Part shown: positions 1 to 52,973 of the stretch, piece by piece
Numbering within the stretch: the stretch's first letter is position 1
How the letters are laid out: every line of letters begins with the position of its first letter
Origin: a virus
Strand: one strand, 5' to 3'
DNA: 60,871 nucleotides
IMG/VR virus record: IMGVR_UViG_3300020138_000001
Span: 1 to 60,871 of that record
Notes under the pieces: generated by a model
The model's database searches: none
Seen by the model: only the letters and a program-made list of their open reading frames with translations
What the model was told of the DNA's origin: nothing
Program-made: the position numbers and the translations under genes

Positions 1-127
1 GGGAGAGTGTCCGCGCCTGGGCGACGCTTCCAGACGACACGCTTGTAGTCCGTTTCTGGCGTCCCCATCCCCGGTGGGGGTGGAAAGCAACGTCACGCGC
101 TGCGTACGCACTCAGCGCGATGAAAGA
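1..127. repeat. Terminal direct repeat copy A, identical to 60745..60871 (circular closure overlap)
   Basis: The first 127 nt (gggagagtgtccgcgcc...gcgatgaaaga) recur exactly at the end of the window. Confidence 0.95.
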
Positions 128-1010
128 GCTGGATCTCATCAATCGCCGGATCATAGCGGAGACCATCTCGCGCATGGCTGCAAACGGTGTGATCCTGTAT
201 GACAGAGGGAAACTGAGCTTCCCGGACCTACCTACGCCGGTCAGTGCTGAGTCGGTCGACCCGTTCGCACAGATTCTCGTTGATGTCGGATCAAAGGGCA
301 TTGCGGACCCCACGAGCGCACAAGCAGCGATCAAGATTCCGATCGGAGCTGATCTCGGAGACTCCGACATTCGGGTGTCCGACCTCATCGAAGTGATCGA
401 CTTCTCTAACCCGTTCTCTGAGCGAATGCTCGATCAACGTGCAGCGGCCGTGACCCGCCTGGCAACGGCGCTCGACATTCCAGCCGAACAGCTAACCGGA
501 CTCGGTAACATGAATCACTGGGGCGCGGCGCAAATCGAAGAGTCGGGCATCAAAGTGCACATCACGCCCGACATGGAGATGATCTGTCACGCCTTCACAG
601 AGGGTTACCTATACCCAACGCTAGAAGCAGAAGGCAGAGCGATCGTCGGACCGCAGGGTGGCCGTCCGGTCATTTGGTACGACCCTTCTGAGATTGTCAT
701 GCGTCCTGACCGGTCGAATGAGGCGATCGAAGCTTACGACCGGGGCGAGTTGACCGGAGCTGCGTTGTTGCGTGAACTGGGCTTCTCGGCTTCCGACCAG
801 CCTGACGAAGATGAGCTAGAGCGCATCATTGATCTGAAGCGTCGACTCAGCATCGTGAACGAGACGATCACCACGGAAGAGGAGTCGGGCGCTGTCGACA
901 TCGATAATCCCGATCTGACCGAAACGCAAGAGACCGAGATCAGCGATCAGGCTCCGGAAGATGTGTCCGCTCAAGCGCAGCAACTTCTGAGGAGTTCTAG
1001 CTATGGCTGA
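1..1010 (+). CDS. Portal protein, C-terminal part (5' partial in this linearisation; codon phase starts at nt 3)
   Basis: Same frame as 60300..60871. The TGA at 1008 overlaps the next gene's start by 8 nt. The call rests on position and size. Confidence 0.8.
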   Translation, partial: ESVRAWATLPDDTLVVRFWRPHPRWGWKATSRAAYALSAMKELDLINRRIIAETISRMAANGVILYDRGKLSFPDLPTPVSAESVDPFAQILVDVGSKGIADPTSAQAAIKIPIGADLGDSDIRVSDLIEVIDFSNPFSERMLDQRAAAVTRLATALDIPAEQLTGLGNMNHWGAAQIEESGIKVHITPDMEMICHAFTEGYLYPTLEAEGRAIVGPQGGRPVIWYDPSEIVMRPDRSNEAIEAYDRGELTGAALLRELGFSASDQPDEDELERIIDLKRRLSIVNETITTEEESGAVDIDNPDLTETQETEISDQAPEDVSAQAQQLLRSSSYG

Positions 1011-21031: not shown

Positions 21032-21514
21032 CTAGAACTTACTAGCGCAAATGGGCCCGATGCCGTTGGCGATGCTCTCCTCGTTCGTCAGCAGACGACC
21101 GCAGTTGCAGCAGGTGCCGGTGATCTGCCCGTACTCCATCGCTTGTTCGAGCGTCATCCGATGTTCGGCGGTAATGAAGAGCAGCGGGCGCTTCCCCTTG
21201 TATTCGAACCTGCCTTCGATGAGCTGCTTTGTAACGAGCTGCGGCGCACGTTCCTCGCTGCCTCGCGTGAAATACACCTTGTAGATGTCTTCCCCGACCT
21301 GGTACATCCCTTCATCAAGCTCAGCCGCACGGTTAACAGTCGGCATCGCTTTGTACTCCGTGATTTTCGCCGAAGCATCTGCTTTCGACAGCTTGTGCGT
21401 GTCGAGCCACGCAAGAGCTTCGGCCGGGTCCTCAAGCTTTTCCGCAAGCAGGTTGCGGAGAAACTTGATCTGAGCGTCGGAGGCGGGGGAGGAAGTAGCA
21501 AGCACGGTGGTCAT
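21032..21514 (-). CDS. DUF6011-type protein (C-terminal zinc-ribbon motif)
   Basis: The C-terminus TGTCCNCGRLLTNEESIANGIGPICASKF fits the DUF6011 signature. The start was chosen at MTTVLATS after gaagggacgaaag. Confidence 0.6.
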   Translation of the reverse strand: MTTVLATSSPASDAQIKFLRNLLAEKLEDPAEALAWLDTHKLSKADASAKITEYKAMPTVNRAAELDEGMYQVGEDIYKVYFTRGSEERAPQLVTKQLIEGRFEYKGKRPLLFITAEHRMTLEQAMEYGQITGTCCNCGRLLTNEESIANGIGPICASKF

Positions 21515-21577
21515 CTTTCGTCCCTTCGTCGTTGATGTTTTTAGCATACACCATCGATTTCGGGTCCTGCACGGGGG

Positions 21578-21841
21578 TCAACATTTTTTGTTGATCTCGG
21601 AACGTAGATGTTCCCTACGGTCCGCTACCTCCATCATCGTTGCTTCATCCCCGCTCAATCCGGCATCAAGTCCTTCGCTCACCAGGGAGGCCAGATCTTC
21701 GCTCAGCGCTCCGCACTCGTTGCTGCCGTCCGAAGCGCTAGCGGCTCCGATCGCGATCCCGAGAATGAGCGATCCGACCGAAGCGGAAGCGGTGATCCAT
21801 CCCCACCGGCGCTTGGCGCGCTTGCCTCCGTATACCGTCAT
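21578..21841 (-). CDS. Small signal-anchored or secreted protein
   Basis: MTVYGGKRAKRRWGWITASASVGSLILGIAIGAASA has a basic N-terminus followed by a hydrophobic helix. ATG after ggaggctggt. Confidence 0.5.
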   Translation of the reverse strand: MTVYGGKRAKRRWGWITASASVGSLILGIAIGAASASDGSNECGALSEDLASLVSEGLDAGLSGDEATMMEVADRREHLRSEINKKC

Positions 21842-22083
21842 ACCAGCCTCCGTGCCCGTGGCGCGTTCGCGAATCGCTGAGCAATGCGCTCCGCTCCACG
21901 CCTGGAGCGGCACGAGCGCGAGTCGATCGGCTCGGTTCCCCAATCTGCGGATGCAGGTTGCACCCACAGGGAGACTTTCGCCCGTGGGGGAGCCACGAGG
22001 ATGAATCGGTACCGTGCCGTCTCAGCGCGGAACGTGTTCATACTGTCGGCGTGTTTGGTCCAGTGCAGCCTAGGGTGTTTCAT
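21838..22083 (-). CDS. Hypothetical basic protein (81 aa)
   Basis: ATGA overlaps at both ends (22080..22083 and 21838..21841) couple it to its neighbours. Confidence 0.45.
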   Translation of the reverse strand: MKHPRLHWTKHADSMNTFRAETARYRFILVAPPRAKVSLWVQPASADWGTEPIDSRSCRSRRGAERIAQRFANAPRARRLV

Positions 22084-24599: not shown

Positions 24600-25823
24600 C
24601 TAGGAGCGCAGCGCCTGACGGACCGGCGAGACCCACTTACGGCAGTACGACTCGGACTTGCTGAACGCTTCGGCAAGCTGCGCGCCGGTGGGGAGCGTGC
24701 CGTTCGTCCGCGCGTAGATCGTCGTCCACTCGCGCGCATCCTCCGGGCCCGCAAAGAACCGGGCGATGATCGATTCCATGTCGCTGTCGGTCGGAGCGCT
24801 CACGGTCGTGACAGAAGCGCTCGCTTCGATAGCGGGAGCGTCGTCGGCAGGAGCGATCTCTTCGTGAGCGCTCATCTCGACGGCGGGAGCGGGAGGAGCG
24901 CTCACAGGCCGAGCGACGTTCACACGAGCGCTTCGAGCGATCTTCGGAGCGCGCTCATCCCACGGGTTCATGTGAGCGACCGCTTCAGGGGCGAGCGCTC
25001 GCGCTCCAACATACCGAGCGGCAACGCGCGTCTGAATACGAGCGCGCACTTCGGGAGTCAGGATTCCGAGCGCGTCAGCAGCAGCCCAAGCGCGATCGAA
25101 AAGCCGCGAGCGGAGCGGCCGGAGCAGTCGAACACTCATGTTCGCGGCGTACCCGTGATTCACAATCCGGGTGATGAGCTGTTCAGTGAGCAGCGCATTG
25201 GCGTCCTGCGAGGTGGCCTTGCCGCGCTTCATGCGGTACCAGGTGAGCAGCGCAGAAGGCTTGTGCTCACGGCCGAAGGTGATGACCACGTGCCAGGCCA
25301 CGGCCGCCAGGAGCGGCCACAGCGCGAAGATGATGTTCTCTCCGCCCCACCAGGCAATGCAGCCCATGAGGGAGGCCATCGACCACACGCCGACCTCATA
25401 CCAGTTGAAGCCGGAGCCCTTCGTCATGTGCCACAGCGAGAGCGCTCCGAGAATCGCCAGGAACGCTTCGAAGACGACGACGACGCTAATCGCCGTATCG
25501 ATCGAGTGCAGTCCGACGCGGTTCATCGCCGCGATCGTGGCATGAGCGCTCAGGTTCGTGGCGGCGAGCGCTACGAGCGCTACAGCGCTCATGAGCGCGA
25601 ATCGAAGCCGAGCGTTGTAGCGCTCACCGGATTCGCGGCGCTCACGCTTGCGCTCGGCGCGCGCCTTCCACTCCGGAGCCTTGAGCGCTGCCCAAGCGGC
25701 GGCCTTCTCCTTGGCGCGCGCTCGCGCGCCGCGCGTGGTGGCTACAACGCTCACGATGAGCGCGAGCGCTCCAAGAGCGCTCATTGCGATGATCGCTCCA
25801 GCGGTGTTGGGTTCGAGTTCCAT
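24600..25823 (-). CDS. Polytopic membrane protein with a cytoplasmic C-terminal HTH-like region (possibly DUF2637-like)
   Basis: Start MELEPNTAG after gaggag. The upstream extension is rejected because it would overlap 25919..26266 and the terminator. Several TM helices, then an Ala/Pro-rich linker and ...GAQLAEAFSKSESYCRKWV. Confidence 0.55.
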   Translation of the reverse strand: MELEPNTAGAIIAMSALGALALIVSVVATTRGARARAKEKAAAWAALKAPEWKARAERKRERRESGERYNARLRFALMSAVALVALAATNLSAHATIAAMNRVGLHSIDTAISVVVVFEAFLAILGALSLWHMTKGSGFNWYEVGVWSMASLMGCIAWWGGENIIFALWPLLAAVAWHVVITFGREHKPSALLTWYRMKRGKATSQDANALLTEQLITRIVNHGYAANMSVRLLRPLRSRLFDRAWAAADALGILTPEVRARIQTRVAARYVGARALAPEAVAHMNPWDERAPKIARSARVNVARPVSAPPAPAVEMSAHEEIAPADDAPAIEASASVTTVSAPTDSDMESIIARFFAGPEDAREWTTIYARTNGTLPTGAQLAEAFSKSESYCRKWVSPVRQALRS

Positions 25824-25869
25824 CGGTAATCTCCTCATCTTGTCGTCGTGAGCGAATTCTATCAGACAA

Positions 25870-25906
25870 CGAAAAAGAGCGCTCATCCGGGGGGATGAGC
25901 GCTCTT
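25870..25906 (-). terminator. Rho-independent terminator (minus strand) built from two GAGCGCTCAT motif copies
   Basis: Minus strand: aagagcgctcatcc-cccc-ggatgagcgctctt followed by tttc, giving a 14-bp perfect stem. Confidence 0.7.
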
Positions 25907-25918
25907 CATGAGCGATCG

Positions 25919-26266
25919 CTACACCATGATCGATACCGTGAGAGCGATTATGATTGCGCAGGTTATGAAGTTCTTGAGCGCGTCCATCGGCTGGTACTTC
26001 TTGGGAGCATCGTGCATGTGCGGCAACCGCAGTACCCACCCTCCCCACATCACCGCAGGGATGCCGATCCACCCGACCACATCCCAGGCGCTCTCCGGGG
26101 CCCACGTGAGCGCTACGCACACTGTGATCGTCCCGTACAGGAACGCTCCCGTAGCGATCTCGTTTCGCCGGTTATCGCCTTTGGGCGTCTGTCCGATCAC
26201 TACGAATCCGTACGCCCCTGACAGGAGCATTAGGAAAATCAGTATCAATTGCCAGGCCAGCGCCAT
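25919..26266 (-). CDS. Membrane protein (about 4 TM)
   Basis: 115 aa, hydrophobic throughout. ATG after acgacgaaagga. It lies just downstream of the tRNA array. Confidence 0.6.
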   Translation of the reverse strand: MALAWQLILIFLMLLSGAYGFVVIGQTPKGDNRRNEIATGAFLYGTITVCVALTWAPESAWDVVGWIGIPAVMWGGWVLRLPHMHDAPKKYQPMDALKNFITCAIIIALTVSIMV

Positions 26267-26293
26267 TACTCATCCTTTCGTCGTAGGTCATAG

Positions 26294-26364
26294 AGGCGTG
26301 AACGGGAGTCGAACCCGTCTAACTGGATTTGCAGTCCAGTACCTAACCGCTCGGTCATCACGCC
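26294..26364 (-). tRNA. tRNA-Cys (GCA)
   Basis: Hand fold: acceptor ggcgtga/tcacgcc, T-loop ttcgact, anticodon loop ct-GCA-aa. No encoded CCA. Confidence 0.8.
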
Positions 26365-26483
26365 GTAACGCCGGTAGGCAGGGTTCCCGTGGTCTCGTCA
26401 ACGCCTGGCCGGGCTCTAAGATCGCGGGGCCTTGAGGCTCCGGCGGGCGGCCCCGGGGAGTCTAGAACTCCGGAGCCTTACCG

Positions 26484-26556
26484 TGGACCGTGTCGGATTC
26501 GAACCGACAACCCTCTGATTGCAAATCAGACGCTCTACCATTGGAGCTAACAGCCC
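26484..26556 (-). tRNA. tRNA-Ala (UGC)
   Basis: Acceptor gggctgt/acggtcc with G3:U70, T-loop ttcgaat, anticodon loop tt-TGC-aa. Confidence 0.8.
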
Positions 26557-26645
26557 GTGCGCCGCATGGGAGGACATGGGAGCGACATCCCCACGGGTCG
26601 GAACTTACCCCCGACCATACACACCGTGCACAGCGTGCGTATCCG

Positions 26646-26718
26646 TGCACCGAGAAGGACTCGAACCTTCGACCAACGGTGTGTAAAACCGCCGCTCTTG
26701 CCGCTGAGCTACCGGTGC
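26646..26718 (-). tRNA. tRNA-Val (UAC)
   Basis: Acceptor gcaccgg/tcggtgc, T-loop ttcgagt, anticodon loop tt-TAC-ac. Confidence 0.8.
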
Positions 26719-26719
26719 G

Positions 26720-26792
26720 TGCAGCATCCGGGAATCGAACCCGGGTCTATGAGCCTGAAGCTCATCGCATTGCCCATTCATGCTGATGCCGC
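26720..26792 (-). tRNA. tRNA with anticodon UCA (opal-suppressor-like or UGA-reading)
   Basis: 73 nt, class I. Acceptor gcggcat/atgctgc, D stem gcat/atgc, perfect anticodon stem atgag/ctcat, loop ct-TCA-gg, T arm ccggg-ttcgatt-cccgg, A73. Confidence 0.65.
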
Positions 26793-26793
26793 G

Positions 26794-26868
26794 TAGCGAG
26801 CCCGAGATTTGAACTCGGAACCACGATCGTATCAGGATCGCGCTCTAACCAAATTGAGCTAACTCGCC
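26794..26868 (-). tRNA. tRNA-Ile (GAU)
   Basis: Anticodon stem cgatc/gatcg, loop ct-GAT-ac, T-loop ttcaaat. Confidence 0.8.
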
Positions 26869-26869
26869 G

Positions 26870-26943
26870 TACCTCGCGCAGGATTCGAACCCGCGACCGC
26901 AGAGGGTAGAAGCCTCCGGCTCTGTCCACTGAGCTAGCGAGGT
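26870..26943 (-). tRNA. tRNA-Arg (UCU)
   Basis: Perfect acceptor acctcgc/gcgaggt, loop ct-TCT-ac, T-loop ttcgaat. Confidence 0.75.
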
Positions 26944-27012
26944 GTGCGGTCCGCCCGTCGCCTACGAAACGAACCGGGCGGACCTTCATTCCTGCAACTC
27001 CCGAAGGAGCTG

Positions 27013-45416: not shown

Positions 45417-45605
45417 GGAGTGAAGATTTCGGTTACTTCAACGGAAACCGACGGTTGCGGGTTCGAATCCCGTCCCATGACAGTGTCATGCGGTAGCTCA
45501 AATGGCAGAGCTTCGGTAAAAATGCGCCGAGATCGATGTGATTCGCCCAGCACTAAAATTTCACACCCTCCGGTGTGACGCGTGGGGATACTTCACCTGT
45601 TTTTG
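45417..45605 (+). ncRNA. YrlA-type Y RNA candidate with a permuted tRNA-like module
   Basis: 5' ggagtgaag pairs with 3' cttcacc and is followed by a tgttttt run. T arm 45457..45473 (gcggg-ttcgaat-cccgt), acceptor-like hairpin 45476..45490, D arm 45496..45511 (gctc-aaatggca-gagc). Confidence 0.5.
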
Positions 45606-45656
45606 CAAACTGGTCCCAAACGCCCCGCGCAACGTGAATCGGAGGATGCACAAGCA

Positions 45657-45781
45657 GTGTGCGGAGTGACGAGTTCGGTTACTTCGCCTATTAAGCGAGA
45701 GGTTGCGGGTTCGAATCCCGCTCGCTGGCTTCGGTTGGCGGTAGCTCAATGGTAGAGCGCTACATTTCCGCACTCATTTTG
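45657..45781 (+). ncRNA. YrlA-type Y RNA candidate with a permuted tRNA-like module
   Basis: Terminal stem gtgcgga (45659) / tccgcac (45767) followed by tcatttt. T arm 45705..45721, acceptor-like stem closed by a UUCG loop at 45723..45740, D arm 45744..45758. Confidence 0.5.
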
Positions 45782-45813
45782 ATTCGCGCACTGCTTGTGA
45801 TGTCCTCCGGAAG

Positions 45814-47523
45814 ATGAGAGAAGAGGACACATTGACGAAGTTCAACAAGGCGCGACAGGGTACGACGCCTAGATCCCCCATCGCCAGCGCAACGCAAGCG
45901 CGGTTCCAGACTGCTGAAGGCGCGCAGGGATTCAAGCGCTCCGCTCAGGGAGAGTTGTTCGTACTGGGTTCGGGCCGATTCTTCGGAGAGGCATCGTTCT
46001 ACGAGTCGGCGCACGACGGGGCCGACCGATTCCGCACGCTCGTTCATGAAGTCGCGTTGAGTAATCCCGAGTGGCTTGTGCGGTTCCTGAAGTGGCTTCG
46101 AACGGAAGCCAACATCCGCACGGCCGCGATTGTTGGTGCTGTTGAGTACGTGCGCGCCATGCAGCGCCCGGAGGCTGCCGATGCCGTCGCCATCCGCGAC
46201 GGCGTGTGCCGAAGCGAGATCACGCCGCGCGCCGTGGTGCGTTCCGTCCTCCAGCGCGCCGATGAGCCCGGCGAGATGATCGCTTACTACCTCCAGCGTT
46301 ACGGCCGCTCGATTCCGCATGCGATGAAGCGAGGCATTGCCGACGCCATCACCGGAATCAGAACCGGCCGAGACCCGCTGTACTCCGAGTACAGCGTGCT
46401 GAAGTACGATACCCCTTCGCACGGAGTGCGTTTCGGGGACGTGGTGGAGCTGGTGTGCCCGGCAACAGTGCACCCATCGATTCGTGGAACGGATCAGGGA
46501 AATCTGATCAAGCACGTCATCGATCGTCGTCACGGCCGCGACGAGATTCCCGAAGTTTTCGACATGCTCACCGACAACGCGCAGATTCGCGCCCACGCGG
46601 CGCGGTACCCTGCGACCCTGCTCGATCCCGAACGTCTCAAGGCGGCCGGGCTCACGTGGGAAGACGCGCTATCGCTCGGCGGGTCGAAGCTCGACAAGCG
46701 CAAGCTGTGGGAATCGCTGATCGATGCCGATGCGCTCGGTTACATGGCACTGTTGCGCAACCTGCGGGCGTTCGATGAGGCGGGCGTCTCGGTCTACCAT
46801 GCGGCTAAGGTGGCATCGATCCTGAGAAACCCTCATCGCGTGCGGAAGGCGCGACAACTGCCGTTTCGGTTCTTCACCGCCGCCAAGGAAGCGACCGCTC
46901 CGCGATGGGCTCACGCGCTCGAACAGGCGTTGAACATTTCCACGGAGAACATTCCGGAGTTGCCGGGACGAACGCTGGTCCTGGTAGACACGTCGGGGTC
47001 GATGCAGTGGACGAACCTGTCAGCACGTTCGGGGGTCAGCTTGGTTGACACGGCGGCGCTGTTCGGCGTCGCGTTGTCGATGCACGCTGCTGATGTGGAC
47101 CTGTACGGGTTCGCAGACAGCGTGTTCAAGGCGCAGGTGTCGAAGGGCGGTTCAGTGCTTCGTCAGACGGAGAAGATGACGGCCCGCGTAGGTACGGCCG
47201 GGAACGGTACGCGGATTGCGGAGAGCTTGAAGCGGACGTTCCGAGGACATGACCGCGTCGTGATCTTCACGGACATGCAGACGATGCCGGACGACGGCAC
47301 AATGCCGTACTACGCGTACCACGTGGGGAACGTGAGCACGGCGGTACCGCCCAATGTGCCGATTTACGCATGGAACCTCGCAGGGTACGAAGCGTCGATG
47401 ATGCCCACCGGGTCGGACAACCGGCATGAGTTCGGCGGGTTCTCGGACTCGGCCTTCTCGACCATGCAGACGCTCGAAGCCGGTCGGGACGGGCGTTGGC
47501 CCTGGGAAGCATCGAAGGGGTAG
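45814..47523 (+). CDS. rsr: Ro60 orthologue (Rsr): TROVE domain plus a C-terminal vWA domain
   Basis: 569 aa. The N-terminus has TROVE-like FYESAHDG...WLVRFLKWLRTEANIR, and the C-terminus has the MIDAS motif LVLVDTSGSMQ. Confidence 0.8.
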   Translation: MREEDTLTKFNKARQGTTPRSPIASATQARFQTAEGAQGFKRSAQGELFVLGSGRFFGEASFYESAHDGADRFRTLVHEVALSNPEWLVRFLKWLRTEANIRTAAIVGAVEYVRAMQRPEAADAVAIRDGVCRSEITPRAVVRSVLQRADEPGEMIAYYLQRYGRSIPHAMKRGIADAITGIRTGRDPLYSEYSVLKYDTPSHGVRFGDVVELVCPATVHPSIRGTDQGNLIKHVIDRRHGRDEIPEVFDMLTDNAQIRAHAARYPATLLDPERLKAAGLTWEDALSLGGSKLDKRKLWESLIDADALGYMALLRNLRAFDEAGVSVYHAAKVASILRNPHRVRKARQLPFRFFTAAKEATAPRWAHALEQALNISTENIPELPGRTLVLVDTSGSMQWTNLSARSGVSLVDTAALFGVALSMHAADVDLYGFADSVFKAQVSKGGSVLRQTEKMTARVGTAGNGTRIAESLKRTFRGHDRVVIFTDMQTMPDDGTMPYYAYHVGNVSTAVPPNVPIYAWNLAGYEASMMPTGSDNRHEFGGFSDSAFSTMQTLEAGRDGRWPWEASKG

Positions 47524-52755: not shown

Positions 52756-52973
52756 GAAGGCACCGGAAAACAGATCAGAACTCGCTGAAACAGCGCGGGA
52801 TCACCCCGGGCAAGGTCACGAAGGGCAACCGCCACGGGCAGGCGTCCGGAGGATGGACGCCGTTCGGTACGAGCAGCGTTGAGACGAAGCGGATGACACC
52901 GGTCGATGACGTTGAGTATGACGCCTACGACAGGGCGCGGGGCCGCTGGTTCACGAATCGTAGAAGGGGCTGA
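52752..52973 (+). CDS. Small basic protein (73 aa)
   Basis: GTGA overlap with the upstream stop. Confidence 0.4.
   Translation: MRRHRKTDQNSLKQRGITPGKVTKGNRHGQASGGWTPFGTSSVETKRMTPVDDVEYDAYDRARGRWFTNRRRG

Follow-up and report, generated by a model that had tools for sequence, protein, structure and literature searches.

Transfer RNAs (tRNAs) with stop anticodons are already on record from phages that use the standard genetic code. The Agrobacterium jumbo phage Atu_ph07 carries a tRNA(UCA) although TGA is an abundant stop codon in its genome (PMC6102473), Klebsiella phage phiKp24 carries a Sup-TTA tRNA (PMC8386662), and ARAGORN calls of "selenocysteine and pyrrolysine" tRNAs have been reported for the tRNA arrays of cluster C mycobacteriophages (PMC5966550). 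In Mycobacterium phage Bxz1, the gene annotated "tRNA-OTHER" was confirmed here to have anticodon CUA. Suppressor tRNAs are also well known from stop-codon-recoded phages (10.1101/2021.08.26.457843; PMC11210395). Here, we describe a tRNA gene with anticodon UCA, which reads UGA, at positions 26720..26792 on the minus strand of the viral record IMGVR_UViG_3300020138_000001, the whole 60,871 nucleotides (nt) of which were analyzed and are referred to below as the window. What this locus adds to the known cases is an apparently recent tRNA cassette, found in a single genome, together with an alanine-type acceptor stem.

The window gene resembles the orphan tRNAs of Atu_ph07, Bxz1, the cluster C phages, and phiKp24 in having a stop anticodon and a normal size, in lying among many sense tRNAs, and in coexisting with abundant use of the same codon as a terminator; as in Bxz1, HNH endonuclease genes sit in the tRNA array. 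Unlike them, it appears to be a recently inserted cassette whose close relatives lack it, and its acceptor stem carries the alanine acceptor set (G3:U70 and A73). No sequence similarity beyond the T arm was detected by blastn between the orphan tRNAs of those phages and the window gene. With the Sup-TCA tRNAs of code-4 phages (10.1101/2021.08.26.457843; PMC11210395) it shares the UCA anticodon, its encoding by a phage, and the expectation of charging by a host synthetase; unlike the window, however, code-4 phages are low in G+C, have almost lost TGA stops, and carry in-frame TGA (Trp) codons in late genes.

Two further comparisons concern engineered or selected tRNAs. The window gene is like laboratory opal suppressors in its Gly/Arg-type body and acceptor stem and in the position-36 change (UCC or UCU to UCA) by which its anticodon could have arisen. 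Such suppressors have been obtained from sense tRNAs, as with the glyT-derived and trpT suppressors of Escherichia coli and the psu suppressors of phage T4, the latter reportedly the work of McClain in 1970 (cited in PMC8386662). It is unlike them in being a natural gene with additional identity (A73, G3:U70) and loop (G37, G38) changes. The second comparison is with tRNA-Ala identity transplants, for which Hou and Schimmel, and McClain and Foss, are both said to have found in 1988 that G3:U70 moved into other tRNA bodies confers alanine acceptance. The window gene likewise combines a non-Ala body, a suppressor anticodon, and G3:U70 with A73, but it occurs naturally, has C2:G71 in place of G2:C71, and is an alanine acceptor by prediction only.

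Structure and anticodon register of the UCA tRNA

ARAGORN called a tRNA with anticodon tca at 26719-26792 on the minus strand, and the Rfam tRNA model (RF00005) covered 26720-26792 on the same strand from end to end (model positions 1 to 71) with 50.3 bits, far over the gathering score of 29 (E = 7.7e-8 for the whole window). The anticodon register had high posterior probability in the covariance-model alignment and was the same UCA register that ARAGORN gave. The original prediction, which had drawn a 73-nt cloverleaf with anticodon UCA, was right in all stem and loop details; the strand was not stated there. This class I tRNA has a 7-bp acceptor stem (GCGGCAU/AUGCUGC) with G3:U70 as the sole G-U pair in the stems, discriminator A73, a 4-bp D stem (GCAU/AUGC), and a 5-bp anticodon stem (AUGAG/CUCAU) closing a 7-nt loop, C32-U33-U34-C35-A36-G37-G38 (CU-UCA-GG). 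The variable loop has 4 nt (AGAC), and the T arm is CCGGG-UUCGAUU-CCCGG. The four intact stems (7/4/5/5 bp), the T loop, G18G19, U33, and the purine at position 37 are all canonical.

Several other positions are not. The near-universal U8/A14 is replaced by C8 and G14, a combination seen in 14 of the 1554 tRNAs (0.9%) of our collected set, in which U8/A14 occurred 1268 times. C32 together with G38 was found in 0.6% of the collected tRNAs, and G37 after A36 in 10%. Folding of the single strand (-30.4 kcal/mol, z = -2.86) recovered the acceptor, D, and T arms, and the minimum-energy fold also paired C32 with G38 and U33 with G37, closing the anticodon loop to 3 nt. By Rfam score, the UCA tRNA ranked 22nd of 25.

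A selenocysteine tRNA (tRNA-Sec), for which we looked for an 8/5 or 9/4 arrangement (13-bp acceptor plus T domain), a 6-bp D stem, a long variable arm, and a length of about 90 to 100 nt, was rejected on the basis of the 73-nt length, the 7/5 acceptor and T stems, the 4-bp D stem, and the 4-nt variable loop. The Rfam scan gave no tRNA-Sec match at the gathering score, and the "SeC" label assigned by ARAGORN stems from the anticodon alone. The argument that the molecule is too short for a selenocysteine tRNA was therefore borne out by its stem layout and variable loop, and the separate tRNA-Trp(CCA) to which the original prediction had pointed was found by both ARAGORN and Rfam at 29860..29931 on the minus strand, with G73.

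Distribution and insertion of the cassette

The UCA tRNA lies in an array of 28 tRNA genes, many of them abutting, at 26293..29931 on the minus strand (ARAGORN and Rfam). The array is syntenic across a large clade of ~60-kb phages whose arrays hold 16 to 29 tRNA genes. We compared it with the arrays of eight distant IMG/VR relatives (L001, L007, L008, L009, L251, L257, L261, and L262), of eleven close-relative contigs (L267-L278) from more than 10 samples, in which the protein encoded next to the array is 95 to 96% identical to that of the window, and of two further lineages (L282-L287). The close arrays were reached through Logan and ENA contigs of the 90% cluster of the neighboring protein; in other relatives, at 93 to 95% (L003-L006, L224, and L243), the array region lay outside their coverage.

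In the window, the UCA tRNA is preceded on its 5' side by tRNA-Ile(GAU) (26794..26868, minus strand) and followed on its 3' side by tRNA-Val(UAC) (26646..26718, minus strand), both identified by ARAGORN and Rfam. In every one of the ~20 related arrays examined, this tRNA-Ile directly abuts this tRNA-Val, and none of those arrays contains an anticodon tca, cta, or tta. Among 684 tRNAs in 71 family loci, tca occurred only in the window's own source contigs. Alignment with the close relative L267 revealed a clean 74-nt insertion consisting of the UCA tRNA and a single C after its discriminator (26719, minus strand), and ACGC stands at either junction. Abutting units elsewhere in the array are joined in the same way, at N73-C|G1, and whole tRNA units are gained or lost among relatives precisely at such junctions. 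Two public assemblies, Logan SRR7057127_3276 (60,774 bp) and ENA ERZ27245341 k141_298684 (60,885 bp), match the window at 100% identity across more than 20 kb, UCA tRNA included; the gene is not an assembly artifact, though both assemblies may derive from the same reads.

The tRNA-Arg(UCU) and tRNA-Ile genes upstream of the insertion are 97% identical to those of the close relatives, and tRNA-Ala is 95 to 96% identical, but the tRNA-Val adjoining the insertion is only ~85 to 89% identical in the comparison with L267, and 77 to 91% across the relatives' alleles, which suggests that the recombination tract delivering the UCA tRNA may have extended into tRNA-Val. More broadly, in an identity matrix of all 26 shared tRNAs, identity to one and the same close relative ranged from 62 to 100%, tRNA by tRNA, and some cassettes of the array matched distant relatives best. 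The arrays of the clade are cassette mosaics, as comparisons of the window with L267, L275, L277, L009, L007, L262, and others make plain.

None of the tRNAs of the window or of all the related arrays resembles the UCA tRNA (best, 52 of 73 positions). This figure, from a comparison with the other tRNAs of the window and those in the arrays of the first relatives, led us to reject an origin by duplication within the array. In the search for a donor, exact anticodon-arm patterns found no match in IMG/VR, and blastn against GenBank phages matched T arms only. Recent gain of a cassette by recombination with an unsampled array would be the simplest reading of this pattern.

Two endonuclease genes accompany the array. 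One lies within it, between tRNA-Phe and tRNA-Lys (27149..27532, minus strand), and is assigned to the HNH endonucleases by PHROG 4234 (E = 3.8e-34), with a weak Pfam Endonuclease_7 match; it is variably present among relatives, the corresponding spacer being ~400 nt in L009 and L262 versus 16 nt in L007. The other (29932..30363, minus strand; PHROG 2255, E = 2.4e-32), also an HNH endonuclease gene, abuts the first tRNA of the array, tRNA-Trp. A role in moving tRNA regions from one phage to another has been suggested for such enzymes, according to the passage of PMC6409571 that cites the work on SegB of T4. The window is like the SegB-type spread described in that passage for T4-like phages (PMC6409571) in having endonuclease genes inside a tRNA cluster and mosaic cassettes; it differs in that its endonucleases are of the HNH type, and their activity and any role in the UCA insertion are putative.

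TGA as a stop codon in the window and its relatives

A crude codon-usage gene call gave 72 genes, or 70 after removal of two antisense artifacts. The stops of these 70 genes were TAG in 30, TGA in 29 (41%), and TAA in 11 (TGA in 30 of 72 before clean-up), and the TGA-terminated genes include those for the portal, the adaptor, and the tape measure protein, in keeping with the earlier remark that many genes here end in TGA. Orthologous gene ends in relatives comprised 112 TAA, 92 TAG, and 95 TGA (32%), and all 15 comparable TGA stops of the window were TGA in the closest relatives too. Avoidance of TGA was thus not seen, at 41% of stops in the window versus 32% in relatives without the UCA tRNA. 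As a separate observation, stop-codon use is unusually even for a genome of 59% G+C, in both the window and its relatives.

The median distance to the next in-frame stop was 22 codons after TGA, 27 after TAG, and 21 after TAA, and post-stop extensions scored as noncoding save where they ran into the next gene; none of the extensions past TGA stops proved conserved or coding. When the window was translated with TGA as sense (code 4) and compared by tblastn with all open frames of 48 related loci (615 kb), no true-frame TGA stood opposite a sense codon with conserved sequence on both sides. One candidate fusion and three apparent in-frame cases, which proved to be antisense, off-frame, or intergenic, were considered and rejected. 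Fusion of the in-frame pair at 21578-21967 and 21032-21547 was discarded since the TGA between them is kept in the 93% relatives and L007 has another spacer stop. The TGA at 60581 on the minus strand lies opposite the coding strand of the portal gene, itself continuous across the window ends; for that at 52894, where L243 has TGG, third-position substitutions point to a different reading frame; and those at 32548 and 32497 flank a conserved promoter/ribosome-binding-site spacer.

The genome uses the standard code, without adjustment to an opal suppressor, and shows no sign of dependence on the UCA tRNA. On this point, the code-4 scan, the extension scores, and the stop usage all agree with the original prediction, which had seen no sign of recoding. 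Its suggestion of an opal suppressor held in part: the UCA anticodon and the canonical size stand, whereas read-through targets or a recoded context are not supported, given a gene confined to one genome, apparently inserted recently, with deviant decoding positions and no adaptation of TGA use.

Ancestry and possible charging

A scan of public genomes and viral contigs with the acceptor-stem pattern GCGGCAT...ATGCYGC returned 219 matches, of which ~129 were tRNA-Gly and ~65 tRNA-Arg, with tRNA-His also represented; all were at most 75% identical to the UCA tRNA. The nearest were viral tRNA-Gly genes (UCC or CCC) that share its D stem and have a 4-nt variable loop, at 55 of 73 positions, a count that includes the acceptor stem fixed by the search. 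The anticodons UCC (Gly) and UCU (Arg) are each one change, at position 36, from UCA. Per-isotype profile hidden Markov models with the anticodon masked singled out no isotype, and the clade's Ala and Trp models scored lowest or near lowest.

The pair G3:U70 together with A73 is the alanine identity set, which alanyl-tRNA synthetase (AlaRS) reads independently of the anticodon. In our collected set (~1,100 distinct tRNAs), G3:U70 occurred in 43 of 45 Ala tRNAs versus 22 of 1077 others, and within the array G3:U70 and A73 are common only to the UCA tRNA and tRNA-Ala(UGC) (26484..26556, minus strand), with the caveat that its acceptor stems often contain G-U pairs. The minor elements recognized by E. 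coli AlaRS are G2:C71 and G20. Of these, G20 is present according to the Rfam alignment, and pair 2:71 is C:G rather than G:C. Because the alanine set is present and does not involve the anticodon, AlaRS is the most likely charging enzyme as judged from identity elements.

Other identity sets fit less completely. From the glycine set, G1:C72, C2:G71, and C35 are present, and U73, G3:C70, and C36 are absent; the phage's own tRNA-Gly has U73. From the tryptophan set, only C35 and A36 are kept, with A73 and U34 instead of G73 and C34, and bacterial tryptophanyl-tRNA synthetase (TrpRS) prefers G73. The UCA tRNA and the tRNA-Trp of the array are identical at 42 of 74 positions and unrelated in sequence.

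Competing explanations for the UCA tRNA

Several explanations can be weighed for the observed gene, with its structure and register, its insertion into mosaic arrays, and the standard code of its genome. The one that we favor, tentatively and with slightly more doubt than assurance, is that the UCA tRNA is a recently acquired passenger cassette whose activity as an opal suppressor would be weak at best, with alanine as the probable residue inserted. Under this reading, a ready-made 74-nt cassette would have entered between tRNA-Ile and tRNA-Val by recombination with the array of an unsampled related phage, an exchange of the sort that the HNH endonuclease genes within and next to the array may favor. 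The tRNA would be released from the array transcript like its neighbors, RNase P cutting at the next G1 to leave N73-C for completion of the CCA end. AlaRS would then charge it, and the alanyl-tRNA would compete with release factor 2 at UGA. Suppression would be expected to be weak because C32 can pair with G38, because G37 stands for the usual A37 after A36, and because C8/G14 replaces U8/A14; A37 is the rule for tRNAs that read codons starting with U, and deviations in the anticodon loop should weaken decoding. Neither an in-frame TGA nor a conserved read-through extension was found, and TGA stops are not avoided; the gene therefore resembles a passenger carried along by cassette shuffling, neutral or slightly costly, rather than part of recoding or programmed read-through.

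A number of points weigh against this favored reading. Among the isotype profiles, the clade's Ala profile gave the UCA tRNA the lowest score (0.2 bits). Pair 2:71 is C:G where G:C is usual, and G3:U70 is not exclusive to Ala in phage tRNAs: tRNA-Arg(UCU) genes in the IMG/VR loci L214, L166, and L155 share the acceptor stem, G3:U70 included, and two of the three carry A73 as well. Should U34 read UGG too, alanine would be placed at tryptophan codons, which argues for poor activity or for another charge. The case for recent horizontal acquisition comes from the insertion pattern, and no donor array was found in the IMG/VR and GenBank phage searches. Finally, a well-preserved cloverleaf is also what would be expected of a selected, functional gene. 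A variant that takes up this last point, namely, a natural alanine-inserting opal suppressor kept by selection in an unsampled donor lineage and now in the window phage, where it would serve to make extended isoforms or to sabotage host termination, seems to us quite improbable; we know of no variant of the genetic code in which UGA is decoded as alanine.

The foremost rival to a weakly active passenger, possible yet on balance unlikely, is an inert relic: a onetime sense tRNA, with Gly(UCC) or Arg(UCU) as the likeliest source, whose anticodon and identity elements mutated in the donor lineage and which is now transcribed with the array but poorly folded, uncharged, or non-decoding, and thus without effect on translation. 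The predominance of Gly and Arg among the acceptor-stem matches and the closeness to Gly(UCC/CCC) tRNAs agree with such an ancestry, even if the likeness to Gly is inflated by matches having been chosen on the acceptor stem. Loss of function would fit the alteration of half of the six identity elements of bacterial tRNA-Gly (A73, G3:U70, and A36), the rare C8/G14, C32 with G38, and G37 after A36, the 3-nt anticodon loop of the minimum-energy fold, the low Rfam rank, and the singleton distribution. It fits poorly with four intact stems containing one G-U pair, a canonical T loop, G18G19, U33, and purine 37, with a covariance score similar to those of several sense tRNAs of the array, and with the coincidence of G3:U70 and A73, the set of a working alanine acceptor.

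Distinctly less likely is a suppressor under selection, for which read-through would be useful in producing C-terminally extended phage isoforms or in disturbing host termination during takeover. In high-G+C Actinobacteria, TGA is as a rule the most frequent stop codon, and 29 phage genes end in it, the portal, adaptor, and tape measure genes among them; the structure is intact and lies within an array apparently transcribed as one unit. Similar unexplained UCA or CUA tRNAs, moreover, persist in standard-code phages (PMC6102473; PMC5966550; Bxz1). The gene is absent, however, from all relatives examined, including the 95 to 96% relatives from many samples, so a UCA tRNA is not needed for this phage type; no extension after TGA is coding or conserved, stop-codon use has not shifted, and the anticodon loop is atypical. 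Charging with tryptophan, giving a decoder of UGA and UGG as in code-4 phages, mycoplasmas, and organelles, would draw on the C35 and A36 that TrpRS recognizes and that the UCA anticodon keeps, and a tryptophan charge would do the least harm in the event that U34 reads UGG as well; precedents exist in the TGA-to-Trp change of recoded phages and in tryptophanylated opal suppressors in E. coli (10.1101/2021.08.26.457843). We regard it as improbable all the same, in view of A73, where the phage's own tRNA-Trp has G73, a body unrelated to the clade's Trp tRNAs (a profile score of 5.6 bits), a G3:U70 that would attract AlaRS, and the lack of in-frame TGA codons for such a tRNA to read. Stop-codon recoding, in which some genes would use TGA as sense, or a selenocysteine tRNA, has in its favor only the anticodon and the automatic ARAGORN label, and is refuted by the sequence to the point of being very nearly discounted: TGA ends 41% of genes, standard-code gene calls tile the genome with no unexplained gaps, no conserved in-frame TGA was found, 59% G+C is unlike recoded phages, the stem layout is not that of tRNA-Sec, and no translation-factor genes occurred among the proteins scanned.

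Array neighborhood

Downstream of the last tRNA, a consensus scan found a terminator-like hairpin of 15 pairs followed by a T run (25874..25907, minus strand) and no other convincing terminator-like site inside the array on that strand, with which transcription of the array as one unit appears to fit. Beside the array in all cases lies a gene for a conserved protein (24600-26120, minus strand; 407 amino acids, or 506 from the first start codon). Sequence searches of Pfam, PHROG, and PDB gave no match for this protein, its homologues number at least 141, many of them encoded on 57- to 63-kb contigs, and in one JGI record it is called "PopZ". Because the hairpin sits inside the long version of the open reading frame (ORF), the shorter start, at 25823, is favored.

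An 88-nt spacer separates tRNA-Val from tRNA-Ala (26557-26644, minus strand), with spacers of 79 to 129 nt in L001, L007, and L009, and in most close relatives (for example, L267, L277, and L278) the two tRNAs abut without it. Between tRNA-Trp and tRNA-Met lies a conserved tRNA-like gene, at 29678-29749 on the minus strand of the window, at 4217-4288 of L007, and also in L274-L278 and L282, with an aberrant and variable anticodon arm; ARAGORN called the window copy Val(cac), Rfam gave it only 33.3 bits, and the relatives' copies were returned as "???" with 2- or 4-base anticodons, the L274 copy folding into a 6-bp stem and a 6-nt loop, UUCAUC. It is a noncanonical tRNA. Both Leu tRNAs (27884-27957 and 27958-28032, minus strand; CAA and UAG anticodons) are of class I size (73 to 74 nt) and lack a long variable arm, unlike bacterial tRNA-Leu, and Leu(tag) has 84 nt in the close relative L267. 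A permuted "tmRNA*" call by ARAGORN (26022-26576, minus strand) overlaps tRNA-Cys and tRNA-Ala, has no Rfam tmRNA match at the gathering score, and is most likely a false positive; Bxz1, unlike the window, has a real tmRNA within its array.

The genome and its likely host

The first and last 127 nt of the window (1-127 and 60745-60871) are identical, and the portal gene reads across the ends (~60297..60871 joined to 3..1010); the genome is therefore closed or terminally redundant, at ~60.7 kb. Minus-strand ORFs at 60306-60812 are antisense artifacts of the portal gene. A plus-strand block holds the portal, head, tail, and tape-measure genes; a minus-strand block holds an FtsK-like gene, the tRNA array, and genes for a nuclease, an SNF2 helicase, and a DNA polymerase; and a second plus-strand block holds a primase-polymerase gene, a Ro60/TROVE gene, a putative terminase gene (weak AAA match only), and a peptidoglycan-binding, lysis-type gene. 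The G+C content is 59% (56 to 63%). No close GenBank phage was found, and the capsid and DNA polymerase proteins match actinobacteriophages only, at 31 to 35% identity. A WhiB-family gene (PF02467; 20589-21023, minus strand) and, next to it, a DUF6011 gene appear in the precomputed annotation of the source contig. Because of these protein matches and the WhiB-family annotation, an actinobacterial host with the standard code is likely.

The Ro60/TROVE-domain gene (45814-47523, plus strand; Pfam PF05731, E = 3e-19) is preceded on the same strand by two sub-threshold matches to the Y RNA-like family YrlA (RF02553), at 45426-45536 and 45698-45761 (36 and 33.6 bits; E = 3e-6 and 2e-5). The "tRNA-Asn(att)" that ARAGORN called at 45657-45730 probably represents the tRNA-like module of the second match, with which it overlaps. 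The region 45426-47523 looks like a phage-borne Rsr/Y-RNA module of the bacterial kind. Bxz1 has an annotated "RNA-binding protein", gp220, which we take to be a possible Ro-like counterpart.

Implications

If active, the UCA tRNA would be a natural case of the G3:U70 identity transplant, in which a non-alanine body with a stop anticodon inserts alanine at UGA, and it would indicate that phage arrays can acquire suppressor cassettes before recoding of the genome begins. Such a suppressor-first order is the one proposed for the evolution of recoded phages, though those start from low G+C and few TGA stops. For the annotation of phage genomes, the locus is a warning that "SeC" or "Sup" calls by ARAGORN in tRNA arrays need not signal an altered code. 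Mainly, it illustrates clearly how a phage tRNA array can turn over one cassette at a time.

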